Of a stretch of 64,000 nt of DNA, positions 1-59,315 are shown piece by piece. The DNA is taken from NCBI GenBank assembly GCA_963704885.1, contig CAVPIB010000001.1, positions 96,001-160,000 of the forward strand, in the 5' to 3' direction. The notes under the pieces were generated by a model. It was not told the DNA's origin. It ran no database searches and was given only the letters and a program-made list of their open reading frames with translations. Position 1 is the stretch's first letter. The number at the start of each line of letters is the position of its first letter. The stretch is from an uncultured Actinomycetes bacterium (GTDB lineage Bacteria > Actinomycetota > UBA4738 > HRBIN12). Both the position numbers and the translations under genes were made by a program.

Positions 1-819
1 ATGTGCAGCGCGCGCGTGCAGCTCTGGAACCCGTGGTCGCTGATGAACAGGACCAGGTCGTCGGGCTTGGCGCGCGACAGGAACGAGCCGATCGCGTCGT
101 CGAGCTGCTTGTAGATGCTGCGCGTCTTGGCGCCGATCGCGGTGGTGGTGTTCTTCGCGAAGTCGGGATGGTCGGGGGCGACGTAGTTCGACAGGCAGTG
201 CTGCGTGCGGTCCACGCTCACCCAGACCGTGGCGAACAGGTCCCAGTCGGTGTTGTCCATCAGCCACTCGCTGGCCTTGATCCGCTTGCCGGTGACCGCG
301 AGCGCCTCGTCCAGGTACGCGTCGGGCCGGTTGCGGTACGTGGTCCAGCTCATGCCGTTGATCGGCCACTCCAGCCCGGCCTTCTGCAGCGTGTCCAGGA
401 GGTCGGCGGGGTAGCTGACGCTGCGGCCCTTCGGCAGGACGCCGCCGGCGATCAGGTGCCCGGTGATGTCGGGCGGCGGGAACGTGAGCGGGACGTCCAG
501 CAGGAGCTGCTGCTTGCCGGCCGCGGTGAGGTCGGCCAGGAACGTGCGCTCCTTGATCGACTTGTAGGTGACCGGGTACGCCTTGTGGGTGCCGGGGACG
601 GTCTCGAGGATGTCGTAGACGCCGTGGTCGGCCGGGTCGACGCCGGTCAGGAAGCTCGGCCACGCGGCCCACGAGTGCGTGGGGATCGTGGACTTCAGGA
701 CGCTCTTGCTGCCCCCGGTCGATCAGCGCCTGCAGGTTCGGCAGGTCGCCGCGCTCGAGGAGCGGGTCGAGGATGCGCCAATCGGCGCCATCCCACGCGA
801 TCAGGATCACTCTGGACAT
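1..819 (-). CDS. Alkaline phosphatase / nucleotide pyrophosphatase family protein (runs off window; frameshift near 712)
   Basis: Manual minus-strand translation MSRVILIAWDGADWRILDPLLERGDLPNLQALI, then after a one-base slip in a G-run ...LKSTIPTHSWAAW. The 3..962 + ORF is its antisense shadow. Confidence 0.8.
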   Translation of the reverse strand, partial: MSRVILIAWDGADWRILDPLLERGDLPNLQALIDRGQQERPEVHDPHALVGRVAELPDRRRPGRPRRLRHPRDRPRHPQGVPGHLQVDQGAHVPGRPHRGRQAAAPAGRPAHVPAARHHRAPDRRRRPAEGPQRQLPRRPPGHAAEGRAGVADQRHELDHVPQPARRVPGRGARGHRQADQGQRVADGQHRLGPVRHGLGERGPHAALPVELRRPRPSRLREEHHHRDRRQDAQHLQAARRRDRLVPVARQARRPGPVHQRPRVPELHARAAH

Positions 820-900
820 GCTTGACGGTCTCCGAGGTCGGGAACGCCCCGGAGTCTATCGAACGGAGTGGGGGTCGAACTCTCTCTCCAATCGACGACG

Positions 901-1020
901 ATGCCGACGTGGAACGTCATGGCAGTCGTGCTTGCCCAGATACCCGTCGGCTGGTCGATTGAGCAGAACACCGCTGCAATGCTGTCTGCGTTGCACGCGG
1001 CAATGACCTGGCGATCTCGT
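901..1020 (+). pseudogene. N-terminal stub of a carbon-nitrogen hydrolase (nitrilase-like) gene
   Basis: MAVVLAQIPVGWSIEQNTAAMLSALHAA resembles the nitrilase first strand/helix (AQ...N); similarity ends at the island boundary. Confidence 0.4.
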
Positions 1021-1040
1021 TGGACACTCGCCTCAGGCCG

Positions 1041-3477
1041 TCAAGATAGGTATGACGCTTCTGTCAGAATCCCAGCTACGCCTTCCAAATTCTGTAGCTC
1101 TGCCTCAACCGCGAAAAAACATGCCAGCCAGCAAGAGGCTCCGCTCTCTTCACTTCAACCTTCTTCTTCCCCCTCGTAATGGCGATGAGCTTCTCGAAGA
1201 AACGCGGGACCTCCCCTCTCTGGTAGACCTCTCGAATCGTCTCCATCGGAATCTTCGAGCAATTCAGGATTCTCCAAGGTGGTAACCGCGACAACGGGGA
1301 ACTGAATCCGTCTTACTTCCCTTCCCCCTTTTCACCCTGCATGCTTTCTGAGTAGGCGTCGCGAACCTGGCTAAGAGCGTCCTCGCGAAGATCGAGGAGC
1401 ACAATGAGCTTGTTCTCAGAGGACTCGCCCCCCAATGACACGGAAGCGCACCCCTTCAAGTTCAGCCAACAGACTAGGAGCAGACTCGAGGGAGGTCCGC
1501 CAGGGGCTCCCTGTTCTCTCTTCAGCCTCATCGAGGTTCGCGCTGCTCCGATACCCATTCTCGGCAATCCACGAATCGACAGCCACAGCGATGGCCACTT
1601 TCCGTTACGTGCTCGCCCAATTGGGCAATCGTTTGTAGCCCTCGGCGACTTCGAAGCGTGGAACTGCTGTGCGCGATCGAACGCTTTCGACCTGCGAGTT
1701 GAGAGTCCGCACCACCTCAATCTGTGTCTCGCTAGCACTCAAGTCCGCACCTGCCGCTAGCGCGTTATCAACCATCGTTAGGACACGGTCGCCAACGCGA
1801 CAAAGTCCTGCTCGAAACGAGTTAGCACACCATCCTTCGCGACGTCTGCATCCGGATAGGGCGGCTCTTCGAGGAGTTGGTACTCCTCGCGTTCAGGTTC
1901 CTCCGCCTTCCCCCCTCAGCAGCGGACCCTCCAGGGCAAACACCTGGGTGTAGTGTCGGCGCTCAAGTCGAGCGAGAAGACGCTCAGAGGTCGCACCGCG
2001 ATGTCAGTTCGGGGCCCGCTCATCGAGGCGCGCGGTCCAGGGCCACTCCTCAGCGTTGGGGATCCGATAGTCGTCGACCGCCTCACGAAACTACCCTCCT
2101 CCAACAGCCTGCGCGCGACAGCCCTCGGGACAGCCACAACGCCTGGTTGTAACGAGCTTCACGCGAAGAAGGCCGGGCCGACTCGTCGAAGGTTGCGCCG
2201 ACGAATTTTTGGAGTCCGGCGAGCCGTCGTTCTACCAGGTTGGCGGATTCCCTTCGCGGAATTCACTACCAATTTCGCCTGACTGACGCGCTACAAGGAC
2301 AGGCTCCGTCCCATCGTGTTCAACCAGTTCGTCAACAAGATTGAGCAGATCGAATATGTGGTCCCCAGATTCCCAACTCAGGTAGTTGCGCAACATCCTG
2401 TACGCCGGGTCAGACTGCGGAGCACTCATTCGTTCCACTCTGTCCAGGAGCTGTTCGACTTCACTGTAGTTGAGTGCGTGGATGTAGATGCGATCGGAGA
2501 ACAGGTGTGCTCGGGAGGATAGAGCGATTCGCCACGCTTGGCGTCGAAGGATGCGTCAAACTCCTCGCTCGCAACGAAGAAGAAGATCCCCGACCCCAAG
2601 GTAAAGAAGCTCTTGAGCGAGGAGACAATCAAGCTCACGGCTTCGATCTGAGATGACCCGTTCAGATCAGCTTATCGAGCTGGTCGTGACAAACACTCCT
2701 CTGAAACCTTGGTCGCTGAGCTCTTTGATAAGCGTTCGCAATTCAGCGAATCGAGCGAGTCCGGCGAGGGGGTTCGAACACCCCGATTCCGGGTTGCGGA
2801 CGACTTGGCGGTAGCGGACTCCGCAACGGATTCCTTGGTGTTGGTCTCTGTCCTGATCGTGATGCCAAAGGCGATTGCCAATGCAATCAGCACGACCCGT
2901 GAGATCACCCCCCATGGCGTGCCAAGCTGGTCTCCAACGCGGAGCGCAACTGCCGTGGCGCCAGAAGCGGCCAGTAGGGCGAGGGCCGGACCAAACACCA
3001 ACGCAATGACCCTGGAAAACGTGAACGTTGTAACCCTGCTGGCTGAACTCTCCCGTGCTGCCTCTGCCTTTACCAAGCTTTCCGCCACGCGATGCTCTGA
3101 GAGGTCCGAAAGATACGTCTTCTCGTAGGTCTGCTCTATCGCCGCCTTCGTCCGTGCCTTGATCTTCTTGGAATCCTTAACCGCGAAGTGCAGGCCACGA
3201 GCCAACGCTCCACAAAACCCGCGCTCGGGTGGCCTGCCGGTCCTCACTCCGTGTGTAGACCTGCGGCAAGGTCAGCTCGACGATAATTGGCTTTACTGAA
3301 CCGGACGCATCGGCGCGGCGCAGCGCCTCTCTGATGAGAGCACTCTTCCCCACGCCTCGATGGCCAGACACGAGCACCGTCGCCGCATGTCGTCGGCTAA
3401 GTACATGGGTCAATCTCCCCAGCTCTCTTTCGCGACCCACGAATCCTATGGAACTGCTAAGAGGTTCCCGTACTCAT
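1041..3477 (-). pseudogene. Frameshifted large P-loop ATPase (AAA_16/KAP-like) with a transmembrane insert, ~800 aa when stitched
   Basis: FVGRERELGRL, Walker A GHRGVGKS, two hydrophobic helices, Walker B-like GVFV-x-DQLDKL across a slip near 2685, SLKSFFTLGSGIFFFVA. Successive minus-strand ORF fragments join down to a stop at 1041. Confidence 0.7.
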
Positions 3478-3646
3478 GCTTGAGCGGAACCCTTACACCA
3501 ACTTCAGGCCCATTGACCACGCCTCGCCCCCTCGAATGGGTGCAACACATGAAGAGTAGACCGATTCACTGACACCGAACGGGACGGAGCCTCCAAGGCT
3601 GTATGCATCCTTGTACTCCGGGAGCCCGCGGCTACCATGGCAATCG

Positions 3647-5323
3647 ATGAGCAAGCTTCAAGAGATCCTGCCGTCGCTGGATCTCGAGATCGCACTCGTT
3701 GAGGCTTCGAGGCGCTTGGACATGCTCCCTCCCCGTCCAGACCAGGGAGCGGGGGGAGAAGTTGGCCAACGCTTCTTGGCGGCGCTTCGCTATGAAATTG
3801 ATCGCGGGCTACACCTCACAGAACCGGCAGTAATCATCTCGGTTCCCAAGCGAGGGCTCGACACGAGACCAGCCGCTCTAATGACGCTTGCAGACCGGAC
3901 CATGTACCACGCTCTAGTTGGCAGATCGCGCCAAGGATCGAACGGACGATTCTCCCGGTGAGCGTTGTCTTCGCGGGTCGGGAACAACTCCCCGGGGTGA
4001 CTGGAGGGACTTTGAGCGGGCTCCACTTGCAGCCGCGCCGGAGTATGTCGTGATGGCCGATGTTTTTGGCTACTACCAATCCATTTCGCATGCCGTATTG
4101 ATGAATCGGATCGTTGCTGCGACGGGAGATCAACCGGTGCGGAGGCACTTGGAGAGCACTTGGCAGCAACGATGGGAGCCCAATCCGGCATTCCCCAAGG
4201 AAGTCGCGCGTCGGATACGCTCGCTACTCTGTTGCTCGACCCTATCGATCGCGCCATGCTTCGCGCTGGATACGACTACTTCAGATTTGGTGACGATATT
4301 CGTATTGCAGTTCCTTCCTTCGATGAAGGGCGTCGGGCGGTCGCACGTCTCGAGGGGGAGCTCCGGCAGGCGGGACTCGCTCTCAATGGCCCCAAAACCA
4401 AAGTCCTGAAGCGGTCAACATATGAGACCCAGCTGACAGAGCTCGACGACGCACGAGACTCACTCAAGGACCGACTGGTCGCCGCGCGCCAGGAAGCTCT
4501 ACAGGACCAGATCGAATCAGCCGAGTCGATTGAAGAGCTTGAAGGAGTTCTGACGGGATGATCCTTTGGGAATCTATATTCCGGCGAGGTCGAGGTCGAA
4601 GAGCTTGTCAGGCGAATGTCGCCCCTCCTGGAGCCCGATGTCGACTGAGGTGGCAGAGGAGTTGTTCGCTGACACAATGAAGCGAGCTCCGTGGTCCACC
4701 AACAAGCTCCGAAGAGAGAGCTTTCACGGTCGCTTGTTGCGCTCGCTCACCTATCTCACGACGGTGAGATCACCAGCAGCCTTGAATGATGCTCCATTGA
4801 TTCTCTATCGTCTTCCGGACGAGACAAAGGAGATGGCACACTACCTCTCAGCGGTGGCACCCGAGAATCGCGACCGGGTCCAAGCCATCATTGAGCGGGC
4901 TCTCACGAGAGGCACGTTCCGTCACGACTGGCAGGAGGTATGGCTCTACGAAACCCTGGCAAATGCTCTGCCGCTGAGCCAACCTTTGATCGAGTACCTC
5001 AACAGCGTCGCTGATAGCGAAGATCGCACCTGGTCTTTTGTGCGCGCTCGTGCACTACTCCTGCTTGCCCGTGCAGGTATCGGAGATAGACGTCAGCTTG
5101 AACGAGCGTGGCAATTGGCCCCCGCCCCTTTCAAGACAGACGTAATCGCAGCGGTGACTTGGCTGAAGACCAAGTTCCCGTGGGCAGACCAATTCCTTCA
5201 AGCATCGCGGACTGACCCTGTGCTCGAAGTTGTTGCTCGACCAGGGTGACGGCAATCCAGGATCGATCCGCCGAGCTCAATGGAAGCGAAGGTCAGAATC
5301 CCCCGGAAGGAGGAGACGTGTGA
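3647..5323 (+). pseudogene. Frameshifted reverse transcriptase, UG/Abi (defence-associated)-like, with alpha-helical C-terminal domain
   Basis: Motifs in order across ORFs 3611, 3918, 4160 and 4566: VPKRGLDTRP..DRTMYHAL, ADVFGYYQSISH, GIPQGSRASDTLA, YFRFGDDIRI, GLALNGPKT, then a helical tail. Ends at 5249, or at 5323 if one more slip is allowed. Confidence 0.85.
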
Positions 5324-5764
5324 GAGTCATGTCAGCGGCACGCGCTACGCTTGCCGATGTGCAAGGTGAGCGGCAACTGCCAGAGGTGGCATTCGTGCCT
5401 CCAAATACGGCACCAGCATCTTCGATTCGGTCGGGCCTCAGCTGGGTTCTCAAGTGGACACAAGCCCATGGTGGGTCGCCAGTCGTCATGAGCCCTACGC
5501 GAAGCAACGCCGGATATGACCCTGCCACTAGAAGGGCCATGAGCGAGTTGAGGTGGGAGACACCGCAGACAATCGAACGTGGGCAGTATTGGCAGGGAGG
5601 CGCCGTACTTGCCATCTGGCTCCCCTTGTCCGATATCAAAAAGCTCGAAGTCGACGCTCGCGTTGCGGCCCTCTGCGTAATTCCTTGGACGTTGAGAAAT
5701 CCATCCATGGATTGAGGAACGGACTCCAACTGCCCTCAAGTACGATTCAGCCCGGGACGACTAG
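5320..5764 (+). CDS. Hypothetical ~147-aa alpha/beta protein downstream of the RT (one frameshift near 5698)
   Basis: AAGGAGG at 5307-5313 before GTG 5320; ORF 5230..5715 continues in a shifted frame as EIHPWIEERTPTALKYDSARDD* to 5764. Confidence 0.6.
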
Positions 5765-5829
5765 ATCTGCAACTCAAGGAATCACGCCCCGCCACGTGTT
5801 TGAGTTCGTGTCGCCTGACTGAGAATCGA

Positions 5830-5860
5830 TTGAACCTAACGTAGCGTCAGGCCGTACCGT
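5830..5860 (+). promoter_or_regulatory. MerR-type promoter (19-bp spacer with dyad)
   Basis: TTGAAC-N19-TACCGT with an imperfect dyad CCTAACG-tag-CGTCAGG, directly before the merR start. Confidence 0.75.
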
Positions 5861-5866
5861 GGCTGC

Positions 5867-6622
5867 ATGCACCAGATCGCGACCGAAGACGACCTGCGGA
5901 TCGGCGAGCTCGCGGAGCGCGCCGGGCTCACCGTTCGTACGCTGCACCACTACGACCAGATCGGGCTCGTGCGGGCCTCGGAGCGGACGGAGGCCGGCCA
6001 CCGGCGCTACTCCGAGGCCGACGTCCGCCGGCTGTACCAGGTCGTGGCGCTCCGCTCCCTCGGCGTGCCGCTCGCGCGGATCGCCCGCGCGCTCGAGGGC
6101 GACGGGTTCACGCTGAAGGACGCGGTCACCGCCCAGCTGGAGGCGGTCGACGCCGAGCTCCTGCACGCGCGGCGCCTGCGACGGCGCCTGGAGCGGATCC
6201 TCGAGGTGCTGGAACGCTCCGACGACCCATCGGTCTCAGAGCTCACGCCGATCATGGAGGTGATGAGGATGCACGAGACGTACTACACGCCCGAACAGCT
6301 CGCGCAGCTCGAAGCACGGCGCGAGGAGGTCGGCGAGGACCAGATCGCGGCCATCGAACGCGAGTGGGCCGAGCTCTCGGCGCAGATGAAGGCCCACCGC
6401 GACGCCGGCACGGATCCGTCCGATCCCGAGGTGCGCGCGCTCGCGGAGCGCTGGGGAGACCTCACCGAACGCACGATCTCAGGCTTCACCGGCGGCGATC
6501 CCGGCATCACCGAGAGCCTCGGCCGCATGTACAAGGAGGAAGGTCCGGAGAAGGCCTCCCGCGGCACCTTCGACGCCGACCTGCTGGAGTACGTGACCCG
6601 CGCTCAGATGGCGGGAGAGTGA
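5867..6622 (+). CDS. MerR-family regulator with TipAS-like C-terminal domain
   Basis: IGELAERAGLTVRTLHHYDQIGL HTH; C-terminal GTDPSDPEVRALAERW...FTGGDPGI. Confidence 0.9.
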   Translation: MHQIATEDDLRIGELAERAGLTVRTLHHYDQIGLVRASERTEAGHRRYSEADVRRLYQVVALRSLGVPLARIARALEGDGFTLKDAVTAQLEAVDAELLHARRLRRRLERILEVLERSDDPSVSELTPIMEVMRMHETYYTPEQLAQLEARREEVGEDQIAAIEREWAELSAQMKAHRDAGTDPSDPEVRALAERWGDLTERTISGFTGGDPGITESLGRMYKEEGPEKASRGTFDADLLEYVTRAQMAGE

Positions 6623-9121: not shown

Positions 9122-9128
9122 CTCGCCT

Positions 9129-9398
9129 AGCTCCTTCACGCGCGGCGCCTACGACGGCGCCTGGAGCGGATCCTCGAGGTGCTGGAACGCTCCGACGACC
9201 CATCGGTCTCAGAGCTCACGCAGATCATGGAGCTGACTCAGATGCACGAGACGTACTACTCGCCCGAACAGCTCGCGGAGCTCGAAGCACGGCACCGGCA
9301 TCACCCAGAGCCTCGGCTGCATACAGGGAGGAAGGTCCGGAGGAAGCCTCACGCGGAACCTCCGACGCCGACCTGCTGGAGTACGTGACCCGCGCGCA
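9129..9398 (+). pseudogene. Internally deleted copy of the 3' half of the merR gene
   Basis: Close match to ~6156-6320 joined to ~6501-6608, with substitutions and indels. Confidence 0.85.
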
Positions 9399-13070: not shown

Positions 13071-13107
13071 GGATGCACGAGACGTACTCCACGCCCGAAC
13101 AGCTCGC
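13071..13107 (+). repeat. Third short copy of a merR internal segment
   Basis: GGATGCACGAGACGTACTCCACGCCCGAACAGCTCGC, one mismatch to 6267-6303. Confidence 0.8.
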
Positions 13108-13110
13108 ACA

Positions 13111-13138
13111 TCGGAGCCCGGCCGAAGCCGGGCTCCGA
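13111..13138. terminator. Perfect 12-bp hairpin
   Basis: TCGGAGCCCGGC-CGAA-GCCGGGCTCCGA. Confidence 0.5.
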
Positions 13139-59157: not shown

Positions 59158-59315
59158 CGTGCGGTCCGATCTCCTGACTCCCGGATCCTCGCTCCCCCGA
59201 CCCCTTCCCAGGCACTAGGCCCAGTGGGCTACTGTCGGGATCGCTCCCCGGTCACAGTGGCGCGACCGTGCCGGATTCTCACCGGCTTCCCTTCGCGCAC
59301 GCTTGAAGCTATGCG
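59158..59315 (-). ncRNA. Cobalamin riboswitch
   Basis: GGGAAGCCGGTGAGAATCCGGCACGGTCGCGCCACTGT...CCACTG...GGGAAG...AGTCAGGAGA upstream of btuF. Confidence 0.92.

Follow-up and report, generated by a model that had tools for sequence, protein, structure and literature searches.

The closest described relatives of the locus analysed here are the reverse transcriptases (RTs) of UG22, a Class 1 group of the UG/Abi RTs (Mestre et al. 2022, PMC9226505). In that paper, the predicted partner of UG22 is a neighbouring gene with remote homology to HEPN ('cluster 79'), and UG22 is listed among 16 groups for which the defence prediction was inconclusive; the paper gives no defence test of UG22. Our literature search returned no experimental characterisation or biochemistry of UG22 and no paper after Mestre 2022. 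AbiK and Abi-P2 belong to the same superfamily and follow the same plan, in which the RT core carries a helical domain at its C-terminal side. According to PMC9508834, they carry out protein-primed, template-independent DNA synthesis, and by analogy they would be the likeliest guide to the mechanism of a UG22 enzyme that is intact. Here we describe a UG22 RT gene in a stretch of 64,000 nucleotides from the genome of an uncultured actinobacterium; this whole stretch is called the window. We consider it probable, at roughly three chances in four, that the locus is a decayed islet in which a UG22 RT pseudogene lies beside what is left of an unrelated gene, rather than a new defence module that works. 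The locus matters little in itself, as it is one more, dead, member of a catalogued RT group. It does show that UG22 occurs in an actinobacterium, on a small islet specific to the strain. Three genomes of the same genus each have something different at this site, which illustrates the rapid gain and decay of defence genes. The islet and its flanks hold the following features:

1 to 821, minus strand: conserved left-flank gene, start codon ATG at 819-821, frameshifted by one extra base near 708.
822 to 5826, no strand: low-GC, genome-specific islet of about 5.0 kb at a variable site between conserved flanks.
3180 to 3473, minus strand: N-terminal P-loop fragment of an AAA_16/STAND-like ATPase (Pfam AAA_16, E 3.2e-12), divergent from the RT.
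5867 to 6622, plus strand: conserved right-flank gene, 251 amino acids, intact, with a host-like GC3 of 0.92.

The islet stands out by its composition. Between 1001 and 6000, the 1-kb bins have a GC content of 0.575-0.597, and every other bin in the window has 0.615-0.708, which corresponds to about 0.58 in the islet versus about 0.67 outside it, and GC3 is about 0.6 compared to 0.92 in the next gene. Three genomes of the same genus (G010, G011, and G004) align to both flanks, at 1-821 and 5827-6608, with 93-98% identity, and the right-flank gene is 93-96% identical at the DNA level in G011, G010, and G006. The distance between the flanks is only 245, 693, and 206 bp in G010, G011, and G004, respectively, and these short spacers are unrelated to one another and to the islet. 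We found no tRNA gene, no flanking repeat, and no match of the islet DNA to plasmids. The intact RT protein gave only four distant matches among plasmids, with 28-34% identity. An Rfam search of positions 700-6000 returned no family at E <= 0.1, the best hit being a chance-level snoRNA (E 0.33), and a scan for promoters and terminators between 3300 and 5900 gave 0 of each.

We propose that the islet was probably acquired horizontally by this high-GC actinobacterial genome, in which it occupies an intergenic site that is hypervariable, and that its genes have since decayed to three presumed remnants, namely, the UG22 RT, the N-terminal domain of the downstream partner, and the AAA_16/STAND-like P-loop stump. 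Of the ATPase very little is left, as the match spans only positions 2-62 of the 167 of the AAA_16 profile and the reading frame breaks off at around residue 60. No other domain was recognised among the 47 stop-to-stop pieces from 572-3657, no homologues were found for the next ORF (2675-3271), and a tblastn search with six minus-strand pieces of the islet against 22 UG22 loci gave nothing. The RT itself, on the other hand, can be followed over its whole length:

3647 to 5249, plus strand: UG22-class (Class 1 UG/Abi) RT pseudogene, whose intact relatives, of about 540 amino acids, are collinear with it.
3923 to 3924, plus strand: frameshift 1, frame 2 to 1, located by three-frame translation against a homologue, 5' of the catalytic motifs.
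3985 to 3986, plus strand: frameshift 2, frame 1 to 0, located by translation, blastx against a homologue, and profile read-through.
4134 to 4135, plus strand: frameshift 3, frame 0 to 2, located in the same three ways.
4286 to 4297, plus strand: motif C, F-G-D-D, with the catalytic aspartates, from the translation.
4559 to 4561, plus strand: in-frame TGA nonsense codon, past which homology resumes in the same frame.
4643 to 4646, plus strand: frameshift 4, frame 2 to 0, located in the same three ways as frameshifts 2 and 3.

Four plus-strand ORF pieces carry the RT (3611-3961, 3918-4409, 4160-4561, and 4566-5249), and for all four the top PADLOC profile is RT_UG22, matched in collinear order at positions 4-93, 102-157, 159-282, and 287-472 of 476 with 59.4, 45, 123, and 75.5 bits, respectively. 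On the third piece, the runner-up is UG21 (82.4 bits, compared to 123 for UG22). Six intact relatives also have UG22 as their best PADLOC profile, the closest ones with 216-350 bits, and Pfam RVT_1 matches the window's RT with 35.2 bits against a cut-off of 29.6. With blastx against homologue P0004, five collinear frame segments cover residues 3-529 of 539. When the breaks are read through as X, the RT has 534 amino acids and scores 611 bits (E 7e-188) over positions 4-532 of 541 of a clade profile of 22 members; a chance match is excluded because this E value was obtained with a profile from which the window's own RT had been left out. The read-through protein is 47-51% identical to its five closest relatives and retains 35 of the 37 invariant columns and 34 of the 39 that are nearly invariant. 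Judged from its sequence, the RT is thus a member of UG22, a described Class 1 UG/Abi group.

Other assignments fit less well. AbiP2 reaches only 33.4 bits on the third piece versus 123 for UG22, and neither AbiK nor AbiA is among the best 25 of the 73 matching families in the PADLOC search. A retron, group II intron, diversity-generating retroelement (DGR), or CRISPR RT was rejected, as RVT_1 is the sole Pfam domain and the Rfam search of 700-6000 at E <= 0.1 was empty. For the CRISPR-associated type in particular, the Cas1_IIIb-type profiles scored far below UG22, and for a DGR only short direct repeats were present (up to 32 nt, 66-88% identical), unlike template and variable repeats.

Compared to its UG22 relatives, the window's copy shows the same organisation, with a helical-repeat tail behind the RT domain, and is collinear in length and order. 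The tail is probably a helical-repeat domain, as the UG22 profile is matched there at 287-472 and the AlphaFold model of intact homologue P0001 (pLDDT 92.3) is all-helical over residues 256-544. In motif C, the G-D-D that is invariant in 22 relatives is kept; the residue before it is F in the window versus only H or Y in the pattern from these relatives. The copy also differs by its four frameshifts and its nonsense codon. No HEPN-like neighbour was recognised in the Pfam scans, which covered the islet ORFs and 13 neighbours at related RT loci and showed no HEPN family. An earlier note on this DNA had described a UG/Abi-like RT with an uncommon FGDD centre and a helical C terminus, and with no maturase, cas1, or DGR repeat, all of which we confirm, and the PADLOC profiles now sharpen the class to UG22. 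The note had also seen the RT as split across four ORFs; it is indeed split, on the plus strand, but by more breaks than that implies.

As assembled, the coding path of the RT runs in frame 2 (3647-3922), frame 1 (3925-3984), frame 0 (3987-4133), and again frame 2 (4136-4558), meets the TGA, continues in frame 2 (4562-4642), and ends in frame 0 (4647-5246) with a stop at 5247-5249. The four frameshifts and the TGA leave no uninterrupted RT ORF, whereas the intact relatives, of 537-545 amino acids, are each a single ORF. From the RT start only a fragment of about 100 amino acids without the palm could be made, because frameshift 1 precedes the catalytic motifs, and the locus as sequenced would do nothing. 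The intact ancestor, by analogy with other Class 1 UG/Abi enzymes, may have functioned in phage defence. The intact relative in G043 (545 amino acids) is a better subject for the characterisation of UG22 than the locus in the window.

It could be argued that the breaks are programmed, and that ribosomal frameshifting combined with stop read-through, or a variant genetic code, yields a full-length RT. Homology does resume across every break, but nothing more speaks for this idea, which would require four or more shifts, some in each direction, and a read-through as well, all inside 1.6 kb, in a protein whose intact relatives are encoded without any of these. The host genes in the window are normal under code 11, with long ORFs, and we consider programmed breaks very unlikely.

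As 35 of the 37 invariant residues are kept, either the decay is recent or the indels are errors. In the second case, the organism itself would have an intact RT, and perhaps an intact partner. The frameshifts would have entered the assembly as consensus errors, in a region where coverage is poor and strains vary, and the UG22 system at this locus would be functional. The RT is collinear from end to end, three of its four frameshifts look like single-base losses, and the assembly has a metagenome-type look (20 contigs, 97% complete, 4.5% contamination). Moreover, the indels are concentrated within about 5 kb and extend into the conserved flank, where the left-flank gene has a 1-base insertion relative to G004, G010, and G011, no more than about 110 nt away from the edge of the islet. 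In these three genomes the gene stays open in one frame for 402 or 433 amino acids at the least, and this frame is split in the window. This insertion fits a local drop in consensus quality equally well as it fits decay. Other observations speak against this reading. One RT lesion, the in-frame TGA, is of the substitution type, frameshift 1 at 3923-3924 lies outside any homopolymer run, the partner has lost a whole domain of about 100 residues, and about 2.3 kb of the islet (850-3180) is without any recognisable gene. The breaks are local: the remaining window of about 58 kb has long intact ORFs of up to 1297 amino acids, and for the syntenic genes upstream a single frame suffices. In a test of frame integrity made at the protein level, since the DNA identity of G010 and G011 is only 77-93%, 30 of 34 ORFs from relatives mapped to the source genome in a single frame. 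We therefore regard an intact working system hidden by consensus errors as unlikely, and favour true decay of the RT.

Downstream of the RT lies the second gene of interest, with two features:

5305 to 5315, plus strand: purine-rich, Shine-Dalgarno-like stretch, with GGAGG at 5309-5313, 6 nt before GTG 5320.
5320 to 5764, plus strand: partner remnant, derived from the N-terminal domain of a family whose members have two domains and about 245 amino acids; the C-terminal domain is absent.

The partner is read in frame 1 (5320-5694), has a frameshift near 5695, and continues in frame 2 (5696-5761) to a TAG at 5762-5764. The earlier note had given it about 147 amino acids; this length is reached only across the frameshift, and the ORF as assembled has 131 (5320-5715). 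Reading across the break with X raised the score against the family profile, which includes the window's frame-1 part as one row, from 122.0 to 136.6 bits and moved the end of the match from position 113 to 131 of 244, where it stops, so that the DUF1889-like C-terminal domain (about 100 residues) is missing. A profile search found the remaining part nowhere else in the genome. With phmmer, the partner has 28 relatives at E <= 1e-3 (best E 3e-13), 17 of which are 236-296 amino acids long and match over their N-terminal 100-120 residues or so; a word-index search of 5.8 billion proteins gave no match at E <= 0.01 among those of 72-230 amino acids. The conserved blocks W-x-GG-[PA]-V-L-A-x-W and A-L-C-V-[VI]-P-W of the N-terminal alpha/beta domain are kept.

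We also obtained partner matches in G008 (an unpublished genome), G007, G003, and G022 and at C1:539495 of the source genome itself (E 4e-6 to 1e-3). The matches at L018 (G008) and L019 (G007) lie opposite a long real gene and were rejected as alternate-frame noise in high-GC DNA, and most of those in G003, G022, and C1:539495 contain internal stops.

The pairing of RT and partner was not found at any of the 22 UG22 and 30 partner-family loci compared. A tblastn search with the partner against 22 UG22 loci did not detect it (best E 0.55), and the partner-family profile, run against these loci in six frames and against the whole genome, found only the window's copy (next E 0.28). Conversely, a search of 30 partner-family loci with the RT profile gave 0 matches at E <= 10. 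In 20 of these loci the sequence upstream of the match is 1.6 kb or longer; 10 of the 30 lie on short metagenome contigs, and 2 come from the unpublished genome G061. No conserved neighbour was seen across the 30 partner-family loci or across the closer UG22 loci. The genes 3' of the UG22 relatives vary and are often of a defence type (SIR2, ThsB-like TIR, and PDC-M30A). When the partner family was compared to the neighbours of no assigned family at UG22 loci L028 and L023, the profile-profile probabilities were 0.5% and 0.1%. The partner fold is alpha/beta plus the DUF1889 family, not helical HEPN. Most probably, the RT and the ORF behind it do not form a conserved two-gene system, and their adjacency is an accident of the history of the islet.

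This outcome differs from what the earlier note had proposed, namely, a defence module of an RT translationally coupled to a partner that matched no DRT type, to be given up if homologues never sit next to the partner gene. In the 22 and 30 loci they never do, both genes are broken in the window, and the RT belongs to a described clade, UG22. The GTG at 5320 with its own ribosome-binding site is there, as is the TGA at 5321-5323. The coupling, however, presupposes one more slip to bring the RT as far as this TGA, and that slip does not improve the score (192.3-193.1 bits for the read-through variants versus 192.7 without it), the UG22 profile being already matched to position 472 of 476. As assembled, the RT frame ends 70 nt 5' of the GTG. 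That the Shine-Dalgarno sequence is a good one, and that a GTGA overlap is possible, does hint at a former co-transcription.

Alternatively, the islet may once have held a true operon of a UG22 RT and a RecA-like/DUF1889 protein, a rare variant with a non-HEPN accessory protein or effector. If the RT tail was in frame 2, the GTG would overlap the stop, and the frame-2 tail is loosely like the tails of the closest relatives, though without the gain in profile score. That UG22 RTs have varied, often defence-type genes downstream, and that genes of the partner family are found in defence and mobile contexts, would fit such a variant; yet SIR2, ThsB, and PDC-M30A may be separate systems of the same islands, and the partner family behaves as a stand-alone gene and has no PADLOC match. 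With the pairing absent from every related locus and the sole example dead, we consider a former operon quite unlikely. The more specific form, in which the RT was translationally coupled through the GTGA overlap to the RecA-like/DUF1889 accessory or effector before the decay, appears improbable. If it were true, this variant would add to the picture of UG22 RTs with interchangeable downstream genes (SIR2, TIR, and others).

Returning to the decayed islet as the preferred reading, the partner family is of interest beyond the stump found here. It is a rare, uncharacterised two-domain family, modelled with a RecA-like alpha/beta domain at the N terminus and a helical, DUF1889-like domain after it. 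No Walker A motif was seen in the family alignment, and the RecA-like domain resembles HelD, thymidine kinase, and the Pol III chi subunit (VIA Z 9.3-9.8). Foldseek with the family model returned nothing at E <= 0.001, and only the DUF1889 structure (Salmonella Q8ZRJ2; PDB 2es9 / 2jn8) was convincing. It matches the C-terminal domain with a TM of 0.80 on the target and a probability of 1.00 in Foldseek, and with a VIA Z of 11.7 and an rmsd of 2.7 over 99 residues; Pfam DUF1889 is matched weakly (E 1.5e-4 to 1.6e-3) in 4 of the 18 members scanned. Unlike DUF1889, the family has the additional RecA-like domain at its N terminus, and the window's copy is without the DUF1889-like domain. With its confident model and its defence or mobile neighbourhoods, the family may merit a study of its own. 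These neighbourhoods include TIR, NACHT, HEPN_Apea, and a Tn3 transposase, with TIR and NACHT coming from the unpublished genome G061.

The reverse transcriptase (RT) gene of the window is, by its sequence, another member of UG22 and is dead as sequenced. The gene (3647-5249, + strand) cannot be read in a single frame. In an earlier note on this DNA, the RT was described as split across four open reading frames (ORFs), at 3611-3961, 3918-4409, 4160-4561, and 4566-5249. The split is real, but the path followed by tblastn, a three-frame print, and blastx against intact relatives is more broken, with four frameshifts and, by comparison with intact relatives, an in-frame TGA:

3647-3922, + strand: RT segment 1, frame 2
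3925-3984, + strand: RT segment 2, frame 1
3987-4133, + strand: RT segment 3, frame 0
4136-4558, + strand: RT segment 4, frame 2
4559-4561, + strand: in-frame TGA in the RT
4562-4642, + strand: RT segment 5, frame 2
4647-5246, + strand: RT segment 6, frame 0
5247-5249, + strand: RT stop, end of the last RT frame

Reading through the five breaks (X at each) gives a product of 534 residues, which matches positions 4-532 of 541 of a clade profile made from 22 relatives with the window sequence left out (611 bits, E 7e-188). The product retains 35 of the 37 invariant and 34 of the 39 nearly invariant columns, and its identity to the five closest proteins is 47-51%. The F-G-D-D center noticed earlier lies at 4286-4297; the residue preceding GDD is H or Y among the RT relatives, and F at this position is thus unusual but conservative. 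Because the first frameshift falls after about residue 92, ahead of all catalytic motifs, no polymerase can be made from the gene as sequenced, and the locus in this form does not work.

The PADLOC profile RT_UG22 was the top profile for each of the four ORFs, with collinear matches (positions 4-93, 102-157, 159-282, and 287-472 of 476, at 59.4, 45, 123, and 75.5 bits, respectively), and the third piece also matched Pfam RVT_1 (35.2 bits; cut-off, 29.6). Six intact relatives that were scanned with PADLOC all scored best on UG22 (216-350 bits), and therefore the window RT can be placed, on profile evidence, in a described clade, which refines the earlier assignment to a UG/Abi-like RT. AbiK and Abi-P2 were ruled out as identities (AbiP2, 33 bits, versus 123 bits for UG22). 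Pfam, repeat, and Rfam scans of the islet region (islet, 822-5826) gave nothing indicating a retron, a group II intron, a DGR, or a CRISPR-associated RT, in line with the earlier failure to recognize an intron maturase, cas1, or DGR repeat. The long helical C terminus was confirmed by modeling the closest intact relative with AlphaFold (pLDDT 92.3): the RT core extends to about residue 255, and residues 256-544 are all helical.

UG22 belongs to Class 1 of the UG/Abi groups, in which the RT is fused to alpha-helical repeats (Mestre et al. 2022, PMC9226505). That paper predicts an association of UG22 with a cluster of neighboring proteins remotely homologous to HEPN and lists the group among 16 with an inconclusive defense prediction. 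A full-text literature search on the UG22 RT returned nothing relevant beyond that paper. For AbiK and Abi-P2, protein-primed, unconventional DNA synthesis is reported (PMC9508834), and this is a possible analogue for an intact UG22 ancestor. The best-supported model, drawn from family membership only, would be that the RT core and the helical-repeat domain of this ancestor acted jointly in phage defense and that, as in AbiK and Abi-P2, unconventional, protein-primed DNA synthesis might have underlain the defense.

Several other UG22 genes also look disrupted (loci L028, L034, L035, L036, and L044), being split into two ORFs, present as pieces 1.2-1.9 kb apart, or reduced to a fragment of ~200 aa. 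The separated pieces look as if an insertion had interrupted the gene; errors are possible in these loci, as most are in metagenome-assembled genomes. The genome of the window also has another, much shorter RT (270 aa; contig C4, ~252.5-253.4 kb; L003:1369-2181), which scored best on PADLOC Drt8 (95 bits, positions 60-265 of 493). UG22-profile matches in 11 related genomes were limited to the RT-core part; short RTs of this kind may be common in related genomes.

The ORF downstream of the RT, which we call the partner, starts at GTG 5320 and has its own ribosome-binding site (GGAGG, 5309-5313), as had been noted. It was described as a gene of ~147 aa; as sequenced it has 131 aa and ends at 5715, and the greater length is reached in frame 2, at TAG 5762-5764, with one more frameshift at about 5695. 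When frame 1 was joined to frame 2 at that point (X at the break), the score on the family profile rose from 122.0 to 136.6 bits and the end of the match moved from 113 to 131 of 244. A word-index search of 5.8 billion proteins gave no match to the partner, but phmmer, run exhaustively over 1.84 billion representatives, gave 28 relatives at E <= 1e-3 (best E, 3e-13). Seventeen of these have 236-296 aa, with the partner aligning to their N-terminal ~100-120 residues; the partner lacks the second half of the family proteins, and the islet ends at 5826.

Structure prediction, suggested earlier for the partner, was run on a full-length relative and gave a very confident two-domain model (pLDDT 92.8). 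The N-terminal domain is predicted to be RecA-like alpha/beta, apparently without a Walker A motif; its likeness to HelD, thymidine kinase, and the Pol III chi subunit (VIA Z 9.3-9.8) is at the level of a common fold only. In structure comparison, the helical C-terminal domain of the model has the DUF1889 fold (2jn8, Z 11.7; 2es9, TM 0.80). The family is unnamed in Pfam, with sub-threshold DUF1889 matches only, in 4 of 18 members, and two members scanned with PADLOC gave no hit. It is rare: of 400 other genomes sampled in the phylum, 4 were found to have it. Members of ~245 aa (P0035-P0059; L052-L056, L065-L089) are stand-alone genes in defense or mobile neighborhoods. A same-genus match to the partner (L018, from the unpublished genome G008, as is locus L061) was rejected as alternate-frame noise of high-GC DNA, since a long real gene occupies the other strand there.

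The RT and the partner had been proposed to form a translationally coupled defense module, a proposal tied beforehand to RT homologues adjoining the partner. The overlap of GTG 5320 with a TGA in another frame (5321-5323) is present. However, the last RT frame stops at 5247-5249, by which point the UG22 profile has reached 472 of 476, and extension into frame 2 as far as 5323 alters the score on the clade profile by no more than 0.4 bits, the added tail bearing only a loose resemblance to the tails of RT relatives, which leaves the coupling shaky. Linkage was tested from both sides. A pattern scan, with one genome per species, gave 22 loci encoding UG22-like RTs, in which tblastn with the partner found nothing better than E 0.55; the partner-family profile, run against the loci collected by then and the whole genome, found the window copy alone (next best E, 0.28). 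There is no conserved gene beside the closer UG22 RTs, and the genes downstream encode SIR2, a ThsB-like TIR protein, a DUF5677 protein, a PDC-M30A fragment, nucleoside diphosphate kinase, or unknowns, a defense-island setting without a fixed partner. From the other side, the RT profile gave no hits at E <= 10 in 30 partner-family loci (25 metagenomic and 5 genomic, of which the unpublished genome G061 supplied two). In 20 of these, 1.6 kb or more lies upstream of the match; the other ten are too short to judge. No neighbor is conserved across the 30, and their surroundings include TIR and NACHT genes (G061 only), an ApeA-type HEPN protein, a DNA methylase, a VRR-NUC protein, and a Tn3 transposase. 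With no partner in the 22 loci and no RT in the 30, the module reading fails by that earlier criterion. It is improbable that the islet once held a true operon of UG22 and a RecA-like/DUF1889 protein.

Four same-strand genes downstream of intact UG22 RTs encode a defense-type SIR2 (L024; PADLOC, 292 bits), a ThsB-like TIR (L026; 242 bits), the PDC-M30A fragment (L029), and the DUF5677 protein (L031); these may be separate systems or interchangeable partners.

Three same-genus genomes share the sequences flanking the islet (1-821 and 5827-6608) at 93-98% identity and have them 245, 693, and 206 bp apart (G010, G011, and G004, respectively), with spacers unrelated to one another and to the 5 kb of the window; this makes 822-5826 an insert specific to this strain, at a hypervariable site. 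GC per kb is 0.575-0.597 in the islet and 0.615-0.708 in the rest of the window, and GC3 is about 0.6 in the RT pieces and 0.92 in the next gene. A search of 12 same-genus genomes gave no UG22 match (the unpublished genomes G034 and G041 enter only into the counts of the UG22-profile search), and the islet has no tRNA gene, flanking repeat, or match in plasmids. To the left of the RT, the opposite strand encodes the first ~60 residues of an AAA_16/STAND-type P-loop ATPase (Pfam, E 3.2e-12, covering 2-62 of the 167 profile positions), and the reading frame is lost beyond them; a Pfam scan of the remaining 46 stop-to-stop pieces from 572-3657 gave no hit.

On indirect evidence, we consider real decay of the islet genes to be the better explanation, at about three in four. 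The breaks in the RT could instead reflect a bad consensus in a poorly polished, strain-variable region, and a cluster of indels reaching into the flank, as seen here, also has that look: the conserved left-flank gene (1-821, - strand), whose N terminus resembles a phosphodiesterase or alkaline-phosphatase-type protein, is split by one extra base near 708, ~110 nt from the islet edge, whereas its frame is uninterrupted over at least 402 or 433 aa in three relatives. In favor of real decay are a substitution-type stop codon in the RT, a partner lacking an entire domain, ~2.3 kb of unrecognizable islet, and intact ORFs of up to 1297 aa in the other 58 kb of the window. Of the ORFs in two same-genus genomes that are 200 aa or longer and match this genome at >= 60% identity (n = 34), 30 mapped in a single frame. 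The left-flank gene is one of the four split cases; two others are at 68-69% identity, and the third, at 91%, covers only 42% of the query and is on another contig. The near-perfect retention of invariant RT residues fits either recent decay or error.

The hypervariable site sits between the left-flank gene and a 251-aa gene at 5867, and four genomes of the genus have four unrelated low-GC segments there (5005 bp in the window, 245 bp in L059 of G010, 693 bp in L058 of G011, and 206 bp in L063 of G004). On the - strand at 2675-3473, an open stretch of 199 residues, containing hydrophobic segments and lying in a different frame, comes after the AAA_16/STAND-like stump; no homologue of this stretch was found. 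Fragments of the 5867-6622 gene, mostly of its second half, recur at 85-98% identity at 9124-9398 and 13071-13122 and in the same-genus genomes G011 (C5), G006 (C25), and G008, which points to repetition or duplication of a gene segment in this variable region. Elsewhere in the window, a simple ORF screen found no long host-like, high-GC3 ORF at 20.4-21.9, 32.2-33.9, and 46.8-47.7 kb, where GC is normal, and a cobalamin riboswitch lies at 59168-59291 on the - strand (Rfam RF00174, 86.3 bits; gathering score, 31.5).
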